A stretch of DNA of 64,000 nt from Escherichia coli (lineage in GTDB: Bacteria; Pseudomonadota; Gammaproteobacteria; Enterobacterales; Enterobacteriaceae), in assembly GCF_048403405.1 (NCBI RefSeq), contig NZ_CP183129.1; one strand, 5' to 3'. Under the pieces are notes generated by a model. That model was not told the origin of the DNA, did no database searches, and was given only the letters and a program-made list of their open reading frames with translations. Within the stretch, counting starts at the first letter, position 1. Each line of letters starts with the position of its first letter. The translations under genes and the position numbers were made by a program. This document shows, piece after piece, positions 15,800 to 26,826 of this stretch.

Positions 15800-16585
15800 C
15801 TACGCGTCTTCCTGGGGAAGGATGATTTCAATTTGGCTGTCTTGTAAGCGTGATTTTAGCGCAGCGGGCGGCAGCTCGTCGGTAAAGAGCGCGGTAACCT
15901 GTGCCACGTTACCAATTTCAACCGCCGCCGAAGCATGATACTTAGTGTGATCGGCGACCAGCAGGATATTTCTCGCGTGCGCCATCATCGTTTTCACCAC
16001 GTTAGCTTCGTTAACATCAAACTCCATCAACGCGCCATCGCTCTCAATCGCCCCAACGCTTGTTACCAGATAATCAGCACGAAAATCAGCCACAAAGGAC
16101 GCCGCTGAAGGGCCAATGATCCCGCTATTATGAGAGCGCAACGTACCGCCGGGCACCATCACTTCAAAGCGCGGGTTGTGGTAAAGAATATGCGCCACAC
16201 GCAGGCTGTTGGTGATTATCCGCAAATGATTGTGGTTAAGTAACGCCCGGGCAACATGCTCAACGGTCGTACCAATGGTGATAAATATTGTTGAACCATC
16301 AGGAATATAATCTGCCACCGCTTCGGCAATCGCTTTTTTTTCTTCGGTTTGCGAAACCTCACGCTGCTCGAACGCCGTATTAACGACGCTGGAAGCCCGA
16401 CCCGCGCCACCGTGATGGCGCGTAATCAGTCCTTGCTCGCTTAATTTACGAATATCCCGGCGGACCGTCTGCGTGGAGACATCCAGCAGATTTGCCAGCT
16501 CATCAATATTCATATACCCACGCTCGGCGATCAGCATGAGGAGTTGGTCGTGCCGCGGGTTACCGGTTAGTTCGGTAAGGCTCAT
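15800..16585 (-). CDS. yihW: DeoR-family transcriptional repressor of the sulfoquinovose cluster
   Basis: ORF 15800-16609; DeoR HTH (IDELANLLDVSTQTVRRDI); also known as CsqR. Confidence 0.8.
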   Translation of the reverse strand: MSLTELTGNPRHDQLLMLIAERGYMNIDELANLLDVSTQTVRRDIRKLSEQGLITRHHGGAGRASSVVNTAFEQREVSQTEEKKAIAEAVADYIPDGSTIFITIGTTVEHVARALLNHNHLRIITNSLRVAHILYHNPRFEVMVPGGTLRSHNSGIIGPSAASFVADFRADYLVTSVGAIESDGALMEFDVNEANVVKTMMAHARNILLVADHTKYHASAAVEIGNVAQVTALFTDELPPAALKSRLQDSQIEIILPQEDA

Positions 16586-16618
16586 GAAAATTCCTCGAAA
16601 AACCATCACCCGGGCATT

Positions 16619-17515
16619 TTATACAAAAAGTGACAAAAAAGATCGGGTTTGATCACAGTCAGGGATCCCGGCTCGTCCACCGGGACGCGTGCATTTTAAC
16701 GCCGCCACACCGCTGGCGAAGCGAACTGACTCCGCTAAATTCCCACCGGTTGCCAATGCCACCGCCAGCGCACCGTGAAAAACATCGCCCGCACCGGTGG
16801 TATCTACCACATCAACTTTGAAAGCCGGTTGATGTTGACGCCCGCCATTTTCCAGCCAGTCGCAGCCGGCACTCCCCTGGGTCACATAGACATGACCATT
16901 TGTGAGCGTTTGTGCCTGTTTTAGCGCACTGGCCATCTCTTTCACGCCCGTTAAGCGCGCCAGACCCGGTTCTGAAAAGGCCGCGTGATCGCTTAATGCC
17001 ACCAGCTCGCTGATATCCTGCGGCGTAATGTCCCCGTCCAGAACGGTCATCACGCCCGCCTGCCGGGCCAGGGTAAAGGCTTTTTTAGCGCCGTCGTGCC
17101 AGCGCACATCTGCCAGCACAACGTCCCACTGAGAGAAATCAATTTTCTCCAACCACTCTGCGTCAGGCAGCAGATCCGGGCTGGGGTAGTTAATGATTAT
17201 CCGCTCGCCTTTGGCATCCACCATGATGGCGGATTGCGAAGATTTCGCCTGGTTATACCGTTTGGTGTAACGGGTGTTAACGCCCCAGGATTCCAGCTCT
17301 GCCAGCAGGCTGTTGCCCGTGTCGTCATCACCGACGCGACCAATAAAATCGACCTGCGCCCCCAGCCTTGCCGCCGCAACCGCTGCCGTCGCCGCTGGCC
17401 CGCCACCAACTTCCGTATAATTTCTCGCCACGTATTTACCGCTCTCCGTCGGTAATCCTTCCACGTAATAAATACGATCCATCACGGTAATACCTACACA
17501 AGCAACACGAATCAT
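16619..17515 (-). CDS. yihV: 6-deoxy-6-sulfofructose kinase (PfkB-family sugar kinase)
   Basis: About 298 aa, PfkB family GAGD motif near C-terminus. Confidence 0.85.
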   Translation of the reverse strand: MIRVACVGITVMDRIYYVEGLPTESGKYVARNYTEVGGGPAATAAVAAARLGAQVDFIGRVGDDDTGNSLLAELESWGVNTRYTKRYNQAKSSQSAIMVDAKGERIIINYPSPDLLPDAEWLEKIDFSQWDVVLADVRWHDGAKKAFTLARQAGVMTVLDGDITPQDISELVALSDHAAFSEPGLARLTGVKEMASALKQAQTLTNGHVYVTQGSAGCDWLENGGRQHQPAFKVDVVDTTGAGDVFHGALAVALATGGNLAESVRFASGVAALKCTRPGGRAGIPDCDQTRSFLSLFV

Positions 17516-25380: not shown

Positions 25381-25422
25381 TTATAATAAACAACGCCCTG
25401 CGGGGCGTTATAAGGAGTGATT

Positions 25423-26826
25423 ATGTCTGACCATAATCCACTGACATTAAGACTGAATCTGCGGGAAAAAATCGCCTATGGTATGGGCGACGTCGGTTCG
25501 AATTTAATGCTCTGCATCGGTACTCTGTATCTCCTCAAATTTTATACCGATGAATTAGGGATGCCTGCTTACTATGGCGGGATTATCTTTCTGGTGGCGA
25601 AGTTTTTTACCGCGTTTACCGATATGCTCACCGGATTTTTACTCGATTCGCGGAAAAATATTGGGCCTAAAGGAAAGTTCAGGCCGTTTATTTTATACGC
25701 AGCGGTTCCGGCGGCGTTAATTGCAACGCTCCAGTTTATCGCCACCACTTTTAGTTTGCCGGTTAAAACGACGATTGCCACCGCACTGTTTATGATGTTT
25801 GGGCTTTCATACAGTCTGATGAACTGCTCGTATGGCGCGATGATCCCGGCCATTACCAAAAACCCGAATGAGCGCGCGCAGCTCGCGGCTTACCGCCAGG
25901 GTGGTGCAACCATAGGGCTATTGATTTGTACCGTGGCGTTTATTCCGTTGCAGTCGCTTTTTTCTGACTCCACCGTCGGTTATGCCTGCGCGGCACTGAT
26001 GTTCTCCATTGGTGGCTTTATTTTTATGATGCTGTGCTACAGAGGCGTCAAAGAGCATTATGTGGACACAGCGCCAACCGGACATAAAGCCAATATTCTC
26101 AAATCTTTTTGCGCAATATTTCGAAATCCGCCATTGCTGGTTTTATGCATTGCTAACCTGTGTACTCTGGCGGCATTTAATATCAAACTGGCGATTCAGG
26201 TCTATTACACCCAGTATGTGCTGAATGATATTAATTTATTATCGTGGATGGGATTTTTCAGTATGGGATGTATCCTCGTCGGCGTATTACTGGTGCCATT
26301 AACTGTAAAATGTTTTGGTAAAAAACAGGTTTATTTAGCTGGCATGGTGCTATGGGCGGTTGGTGATATCCTGAATTATTTCTGGGGAAGTAACTCTTTC
26401 ACTTTCGTCATGTTCTCTTGTGTCGCCTTTTTTGGCACGGCCTTTGTGAACAGCCTGAACTGGGCACTGGTGCCAGATACCGTAGATTACGGTGAATGGA
26501 AAACCGGTATTCGTGCCGAAGGTTCTGTTTATACCGGTTATACCTTCTTTCGTAAAATTTCTGCCGCACTTGCTGGCTTCTTGCCAGGCATTATGCTGAC
26601 GCAAATCGGTTATGTTCCCAACATCGCGCAAAGTGATGCGACATTACAGGGTTTGCGTCAGCTCATTTTTATCTGGCCTTGTGCACTGGCAATTATTGCT
26701 GCATTGACGATGGGATTCTTTTACACACTCAATGAAAAACGGTTTGCATTGATTATTGAGGAAATCAACCAACGCAAAAATAAAGAGATGGCGACAGAAG
26801 AAAAAACGGCTTCCGTAACGTTATAA
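25423..26826 (+). CDS. yihO: GPH-family sulfoquinovose transporter
   Basis: ORF 25417-26826; strongly similar to yihP translation. Confidence 0.8.
   Translation: MSDHNPLTLRLNLREKIAYGMGDVGSNLMLCIGTLYLLKFYTDELGMPAYYGGIIFLVAKFFTAFTDMLTGFLLDSRKNIGPKGKFRPFILYAAVPAALIATLQFIATTFSLPVKTTIATALFMMFGLSYSLMNCSYGAMIPAITKNPNERAQLAAYRQGGATIGLLICTVAFIPLQSLFSDSTVGYACAALMFSIGGFIFMMLCYRGVKEHYVDTAPTGHKANILKSFCAIFRNPPLLVLCIANLCTLAAFNIKLAIQVYYTQYVLNDINLLSWMGFFSMGCILVGVLLVPLTVKCFGKKQVYLAGMVLWAVGDILNYFWGSNSFTFVMFSCVAFFGTAFVNSLNWALVPDTVDYGEWKTGIRAEGSVYTGYTFFRKISAALAGFLPGIMLTQIGYVPNIAQSDATLQGLRQLIFIWPCALAIIAALTMGFFYTLNEKRFALIIEEINQRKNKEMATEEKTASVTL

Follow-up and report, generated by a model that had tools for sequence, protein, structure and literature searches.

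A ten-gene sulfo-EMP (sulfoglycolysis) cluster, csqR to ompL, in an Escherichia coli chromosome and its allelic context between yihX and yihN

Results

Identity and extent of the csqR–ompL cluster

We analysed a 64,000-nucleotide stretch of an Escherichia coli chromosome (RefSeq assembly GCF_048403405.1, contig NZ_CP183129.1), referred to here as the window, and found that its positions 15800–27585 are almost certainly the canonical ten-gene E. coli cluster for the sulfo-EMP (sulfo-Embden–Meyerhof–Parnas) route, or sulfoglycolysis, in a functional state. The genes, which constitute the 'long' sulfo-EMP cassette, run from csqR to ompL, with csqR (yihW) and yihV on the minus strand followed by yihU, yihT, yihS, yihR, yihQ, yihP, yihO and ompL on the plus strand. 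Order and orientation equal those of b3875–b3884 in K-12 MG1655, the same flanking genes yihX and yihN are present, and the encoded proteins are 95–100% identical to their K-12 counterparts. A first-pass annotation had described a complete sulfo-EMP cluster in canonical order, which this comparison bears out, and had regarded it as known biology, a judgement that we share since the cluster is essentially as in K-12, where the pathway was worked out. The extent that it gave, 15800–26826, was right at the start and fell short at the end, as position 26826 is the stop of yihO and ompL, which extends ~760 bp further, had been left out. OmpL has been counted within the ten-gene cluster (PMC8006165), and its gene is induced by the plant sulfo-sugar sulfoquinovose (SQ) in K-12 (PMC12608037). 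On sequence, no feature of the region counted against the canonical reading.

Gene coordinates were those of the RefSeq annotation of an identical E. coli record, transferred to the window, and they agreed with a mechanical list of open reading frames (ORFs), in which the longest-ORF starts of csqR, yihV, yihR, yihP and yihO lie upstream of both the annotated and the K-12 starts. Several complete E. coli chromosomes (TUM14771, GN02461, 4621 and MS 69-1) matched positions 15000–27500 with 100% identity, and only two base differences separated strain 4621 from window positions 1–50000.

Enzyme assignments and active-site residues

The functions previously assigned to the genes were each supported by ortholog comparison with characterised enzymes, using matches in a PDB sequence search, family models and key residues. 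The 678-aa product of yihQ (21913–23949, plus strand) carries GH31 domains and matched E. coli sulfoquinovosidase (PDB 5aed) over its full length, residues 1–678. Full-length matches were likewise obtained for YihS, the SQ–sulfofructose isomerase (19497–20738, plus strand, 413 aa), with YihS of E. coli (2rgk) and with the SQ isomerase of Salmonella (7ag4); for YihT, a class I sulfofructose-1-phosphate (SFP) aldolase (18603–19481, plus strand, 292 aa), with the SFP aldolases 7ag1 and 7ag7; for YihU, the 3-sulfolactaldehyde (SLA) reductase (17683–18579, plus strand, 298 aa), with the SLA reductase 6sm7; and for YihV, the 6-deoxy-6-sulfofructose kinase (16619–17515, minus strand, 298 aa), with 7ag6, deposited as 'Sulfofructose kinase'. 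YihU in addition scored 603 bits against the NCBIfam equivalog NF012005, for which the cut-off is 348. The Salmonella enterica proteins SeYihS (7ag4, 2afa) and SeYihT (7ag7, 1to3) matched the window proteins from end to end (E-values between 1e-169 and 1e-280), and their pocket residue numbering transfers directly to the window YihS and YihT.

All 26 of the 26 catalytic or sulfonate-pocket residues checked across YihQ, YihS, YihV, YihT and YihU were kept, and no substitution relative to K-12 fell on any of them. YihQ retains the pocket R301-W304-Y508 together with D405 and D472, reportedly the catalytic residues (Speciale et al. 2016). In YihU, R123 (a backbone contact), N174 and S178, the latter two forming the N174-S178 pocket, were present along with K171. 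YihS carries R55, Q362 and Q379 in the pocket and the catalytic H248 and H383, and YihT carries A26, S226, S227 and R253 as well as the Schiff-base K193. In YihV, D13, K27, S95, N109, R138, G243 and D244 were all found, so that the triad K27-N109-R138 and the catalytic D244 of the GXGD motif, which reads TGAGDVF here, are kept. Except for D405 and D472 of YihQ and K171 of YihU, which go back to the primary papers, the residues were taken from PMC8006165. According to the same study, the purified sulfo-EMP enzymes are specific for sulfonated intermediates and inactive on glycolytic analogues (PMC8006165).

The remaining proteins were assigned by family. YihR (20806–21708, plus strand, 300 aa), a putative SQ mutarotase, aligned to the NCBIfam aldose-1-epimerase equivalog NF011719 over model positions 1–300 of 300 with 613 bits, and the PDB sequence search returned no close solved relative for it, only distant mutarotases. 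Mutarotase activity has been shown for its Herbaspirillum homologue, HsSQM, in which the conserved hexose-mutarotase residues are H92, H162 and E254 (PMC5902678). The equivalents in YihR are H92, H161 and E265, which are invariant in three E. coli alleles. The designation of yihR as a mutarotase stands for the family and the conserved triad, and for the E. coli protein it is a putative one, made by homology. A substitution at position 145 (H145R in K-12 numbering) was considered as a possible loss of a catalytic histidine and rejected, as the conserved histidines are H92 and H161 and this position lies in an unconserved loop. R137, the arginine in question, and P247 of the window YihR are common to the O157-type allele, and K-12 is the outlier at both positions.

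YihP (23995–25380, plus strand, 461 aa) and YihO (25423–26826, plus strand, 467 aa) are GPH-family symporters, matching TIGR00792 with 536 and 528 bits, respectively. Their earlier designation as transporters holds at the level of the family; the roles of YihO as SQ importer and of YihP as exporter of 2,3-dihydroxypropanesulfonate (DHPS) are 'putative' even in the K-12 annotation. CsqR (15800–16585, minus strand, 261 aa) is a regulator of the DeoR/GlpR family by the RefSeq annotation and family models, and OmpL (26893–27585, plus strand, 230 aa) is an outer-membrane porin of the KdgM family by Pfam and by NF007434 (471 bits).

Intactness of the ten genes

Each of the ten proteins was aligned globally to its K-12 counterpart, and no internal stop, frameshift or truncation was found in any of them, which upholds the earlier statement that all pathway genes are intact. 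Identity ranged from 95.3 to 100%, with 0–9 substitutions per protein and 14 in YihR. CsqR was identical to the K-12 protein throughout (261/261) and thus includes Met25, described as an alternative start (PMC10991401). The aldolase YihT differed at a single position (291/292, C209S), YihU at two (296/298) and YihS at three (410/413), while YihV had four changes (294/298; T101A, E124K, S257G and D259N). Among the transporters and the porin, 457 of 461 residues were identical in YihP, 462 of 467 in YihO and 226 of 230 in OmpL; the glycosidase YihQ matched at 669 of 678 residues and YihR, the most diverged of the ten, at 286 of 300. The DNA of the cassette is ~96% identical to that of K-12 (96.3% over 15000–27500), and the proteins are ~98–100% identical despite this (95% for YihR), indicating purifying selection.

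Proposed pathway

On the basis of the literature on the K-12 and Salmonella proteins, the window proteins would carry out the following route. SQ or sulfoquinovosyl glycerol would enter across the outer membrane through OmpL and across the inner membrane through YihO, both putative roles. YihQ would hydrolyse SQ glycosides to alpha-SQ, and YihR, by analogy with the Herbaspirillum homologue, would accelerate the interconversion of the anomers. Beta-SQ would be isomerized by YihS to sulfofructose, which YihV would phosphorylate at C1, and YihT would cleave the resulting SFP to dihydroxyacetone phosphate, destined for central metabolism, and SLA. YihU would convert SLA to DHPS, which would presumably be exported by YihP, and CsqR would repress the genes until SQ-type ligands are present. 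Sulfoglycolysis is a textbook pathway (Denger et al. 2014, followed by structural studies). Growth on SQ with stoichiometric excretion of DHPS has been shown for K-12 (PMC8006165, PMC12608037), where SQ raises expression of the whole long cassette at least 32-fold (PMC12608037), and the present strain would be expected to grow on SQ as well.

Control regions and a candidate CsqR operator

The control regions bound by CsqR in K-12 are near-identical in the window. The divergent yihV/yihU promoter region had been placed at 17516–17682, coordinates that proved exact; this spacer, which separates yihV from yihUTS and is the principal CsqR target in K-12, shows two differences from K-12 in 167 positions (165/167). 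Upstream of csqR, 148 of 151 positions (16570–16720) are identical to K-12, and one of the three differences (16612) lies inside the csqR promoter region at 16586–16665 (minus strand), which consists of a 33-bp spacer and the 3' end of yihV. Transcription of csqR in K-12 starts at −27/−28, with a CRP site at −41.5 (PMC5816610), and a corresponding arrangement of a TGTGA half-site followed by TTGTCA...TATAAA is readable in the window. CsqR, a dual regulator according to the K-12 record, binds cooperatively both to the K-12 yihU/V spacer and to its own promoter in the yihV/W region (PMC8006165, PMC8249747, PMC12608037). The ligands SQ, SQ-glycerol and sulforhamnose release it from the DNA (PMC8006165). 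RNA polymerase (RNAP) forms two complexes on the K-12 yihV/yihU spacer (PMC5816610).

Exactly three copies of the 10-mer AAAAAGTGAC are present in the 64 kb of the window, compared with 0.16 expected by chance. The copies lie on the plus strand at 16625–16634, within the csqR promoter region, and at 17569–17578 and 17650–17659, all inside the two regions that are bound by CsqR in K-12, and K-12 has the same three sites. This distribution suggests that AAAAAGTGAC is a candidate core of the CsqR operator. The Nissle 1917 cassette has a copy with one mismatch, located upstream of its DeoR gene. Between the two copies in the yihV/yihU spacer, a 29-bp core, ATAAATTACAAATACGATCAAAAACAGAC (17598–17626), is shared with the spacer of the Nissle-type cassette, with 27 of 29 positions identical and diverged flanks; the two cassettes probably have this operator or promoter element in common. 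YihW of Nissle binds the K-12 yihU/V fragment (PMC12608037).

Other searches for control elements gave little. A scan with consensus promoters and terminators found fewer promoter-like sites than in shuffled sequences and was uninformative, and the CRP consensus was not enriched (19 matches vs 25 expected), with only the TGTGA half-site upstream of csqR. An Rfam scan of 15000–28000 found no riboswitch or small RNA, the only match being a sub-threshold one to a repetitive extragenic palindromic (REP)/naRNA4 element after ompL. An internal repeat search returned the paralogy of YihP and YihO (69% over 300 nt), chance matches and the AAAAAGTGAC family.

The yihR start and the neighbouring spacers

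In the window, yihR starts at the ATG at 20806, with AGGTG 6 nt upstream, and gives a 300-aa protein, while the K-12 annotation has 308 aa, eight residues longer at the N-terminus. N-terminal truncation of YihR was rejected as an explanation, since the 300-aa form covers NF011719 end to end and a Shine–Dalgarno sequence, AGGTG, precedes the ATG. The length gap is an annotation difference, and the 308-aa start in K-12 is probably annotated too far upstream. The yihS–yihR spacer is present in a short form (20739–20805, set against 10403–10515 of the extracted K-12 locus), lacking ~70 bases that in K-12 form a GC-rich CCCTCTCCC...GGGGCGAGGGG repeat; because this repeat is absent, the upstream yihR ATG of K-12 is out of frame in the window. 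The repeat presumably resembles the E. coli 'Box C' repeat. The K-12 form of the spacer is apparently present in most of the long-cassette genomes listed, which align in two pieces with an additional 66 bp. A small hairpin lies at 20753–20774 within the short spacer, and an RNAP-binding promoter has been mapped in the yihS/R spacer of K-12 (PMC5816610).

The 204-bp AT-rich spacer between yihR and yihQ (21709–21912; ~36% GC) is close to that of K-12 except for a 6-bp duplication upstream of yihQ, absent from K-12, and a few single-nucleotide differences. The duplication falls in an inverted repeat, CCTGTAATAAC(AATAAC)AGG, just 5' of yihQ. The repeat, CCTGTAATAACAGG at 21874–21893, lies ~20 bp before the yihQ start and carries the duplicated AATAAC relative to both K-12 and the O157-type allele. 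Small ORFs in this spacer did not exceed 35 aa and none was convincing. Further downstream, the 42-bp yihP–yihO spacer contains a GC-rich hairpin, ACAACGCCCTGCGGGGCGTTAT (25385–25413), without a T-run on the coding strand, which may be an intercistronic mRNA structure.

Alternative cassettes between yihX and yihN

We surveyed 5426 complete E. coli genomes, of which 3882 carried at least 80% of the region; the remainder matched only up to window position 15765, and ~28% of genomes matched only positions 1–766 of the query, which started at window position 15000. Comparison by blastn with the locus of Nissle 1917 placed the full exchangeable extent of the long-cassette allele at 15766–27624, between yihX (15102–15701, minus strand) and yihN (27676–28941, minus strand). 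Homology of 97–99% ended at 15765 on the left and restarted at 27625 on the right, giving exchange points at 15765/15766 and 27624/27625, between which csqR, yihV, yihU and yihT alone matched Nissle, inverted and at 66–67% DNA identity. At the right edge of the cassette lies a REP-type palindromic element, GCCGGATGCGGCGTAAACGCCTTATCCGGCCTAC (27589–27625, minus strand), which matched naRNA4 (RF02564) with 40.6 bits, below the gathering score; the long allele has it and the Nissle allele lacks it.

Three forms of the locus were found. The ten-gene form with the 204-bp yihR–yihQ spacer, to which the window and K-12 belong, was the commonest (~2515–2633 genomes, ~48%), so the gene content of the window is that of the commonest allele. 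The sequence type of the window cassette was rare in the database: only 10 of 5425 genomes were at least 99% identical to the window cassette, the next best reached 98.6% and K-12 96.3%.

An 11-gene form, which includes O157:H7, was present in ~1290 genomes (~24%). It has all ten window genes in the same order, at ~94–98% DNA identity outside the junction, and an extra 292-aa TauE/SafE membrane protein (PF01925) between yihR and yihQ, encoded on a 1-kb segment that is unrelated to the window spacer and replaces it. The gene lies at positions 7269–8144 of the extracted locus in E. coli ERL05-0623, with the same arrangement in O157:H7, and the ends of yihR and yihQ beside the segment are more diverged (77–86%). 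Its product is plausibly a dedicated sulfonate exporter. The window has the 204-bp spacer instead of this gene.

The third form, an inverted eight-gene short cassette found in ~1330–1385 genomes (~25%) including Nissle 1917 and O104:H4, occupies the same yihX–yihN site; in Nissle 1917 it corresponds to extracted-locus positions 9843–18401, which replace window positions 15766–27624. It lacks the GH31 sulfoquinovosidase, the YihS isomerase and OmpL, and has instead a Zn-dependent dehydrogenase, a pair of Sugar_tr/MFS_1 transporters with no relation to YihO or YihP, and a distant epimerase sharing 27% of its residues with YihR. The kinase, aldolase and reductase of the short cassette are 67–72% identical to the window proteins and keep all the checked sulfonate-pocket and catalytic residues. 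The window differs from this type in having yihQ, yihS and ompL, and its T/U/V/W proteins are 67–72% identical to the Nissle set. The dichotomy of long and short forms, their scattered phylogenetic distribution and the absence of SQ induction of the short form, as seen in Nissle, have been published (Kaznadzey et al. 2025, PMC12608037); there, the short form appears as yihTUVW, and neither TauE nor the other four short-cassette genes are mentioned. Because the kinase, aldolase and reductase paralogues keep every checked pocket and catalytic residue, the short cassette appears to be a pathway for another sulfonated substrate and not a remnant, and its substrate may be another sulfosugar or a sulfo-alditol.

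Other features of the window

The interval between yiiE and fabY (10586–12400) contains a transposase and a truncated hypothetical gene, as annotated in the identical reference genome. In K-12 the corresponding place is occupied by yiiF and other sequence, in Nissle and O104:H4 by nadS and an alpha/beta hydrolase, which makes the interval a second variable spot. At 2176–2818 there is a pseudogene of the yiiG family.

Discussion

The identity of the ten genes with characterised K-12 and Salmonella proteins and their intactness place the csqR–ompL region of the window with the sulfo-EMP cluster of E. coli. Three points weigh against taking it as fully equivalent to the K-12 cluster. First, the transport roles of OmpL, YihO and YihP and the activity of E. 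coli YihR are putative. Second, the yihS–yihR spacer lacks ~70 bp in a region that carries a mapped promoter in K-12, so expression of the downstream half of the cluster could differ in this strain. Third, there are missense differences from K-12, with 14 in YihR and 9 in YihQ, several of which are common to other natural alleles.

A broader reading concerns the locus rather than the ten genes. It would be a three-state cassette polymorphism rather than a fixed core operon, with alleles swapped through recombination in the flanking yihX and yihN, and the window would carry the allele at 15766–27624; the short allele would encode a full paralogous pathway that acts on some other sulfonated substrate, with a Zn-dehydrogenase in place of the isomerase, transporters of its own and retained sulfonate pockets, and the 11-gene allele would add a TauE-type sulfonate exporter. 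Under this reading, only the AAAAAGTGAC-based CsqR operator and the 29-bp core would be previously unreported in the window itself. We put it forward tentatively, as possible rather than probable.

It has also to be considered that the main function of the cluster, or of its yihS-T-V-W core, concerns another carbohydrate, as a back-up for lactose in K-12 or for capsule and O-antigen sugars in Salmonella, with SQ as an incidental substrate. A link to capsule has been proposed for Salmonella yih genes. A Salmonella capsule-vaccine study reportedly uses yihW heavily (PMC7922415). In K-12, yihT, yihS and yihV are induced on lactose and the yihT promoters are switched in a YihW-dependent manner (PMC5816610). 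However, the enzymes are specific for sulfonated intermediates (PMC8006165) and the sulfonate pockets are all present here, the ligands that release CsqR are SQ, SQ-glycerol and sulforhamnose (PMC8006165), and the whole K-12 cassette responds to SQ with at least 32-fold induction (PMC12608037). We therefore regard a mainly non-sulfonated role as very improbable.

Slightly less probable still is that the cluster is cryptic or decaying in this strain, part of it silenced by missense changes or altered spacers as apparently in the silent Nissle 1917 cassette: the divergence of YihR (286/300), the loss from the yihS–yihR spacer of the ~70 bp bearing the K-12 RNAP-binding site, the 6 bp duplicated within the inverted repeat before yihQ and the disruption by insertion sequences or truncation of the cassette in a few other genomes would fit such a state, but all ORFs are intact with their key residues kept, the excess of protein over DNA identity points to purifying selection, the O157-type allele likewise has R137 and P247 in YihR, the main control regions hardly differ from those of K-12, and the window carries the long cassette and not the Nissle type.

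The sulfo-EMP cluster described here is the strain's copy of a textbook pathway, a defined sulfoglycolytic function that the uninformative 'yih' names hide, and for its annotation the useful corrections are to include ompL in the cluster and to call YihR at 300 aa. The strain is predicted to use the head groups of plant sulfolipids and to feed DHPS to producers of sulfite or H2S in the gut. In a wider context, the locus would be a recombination hot spot with three alleles, and the allele with TauE and the complete gene set of the short allele, which lie outside the DNA of the window and are absent from PMC12608037, are somewhat more interesting than the window itself.

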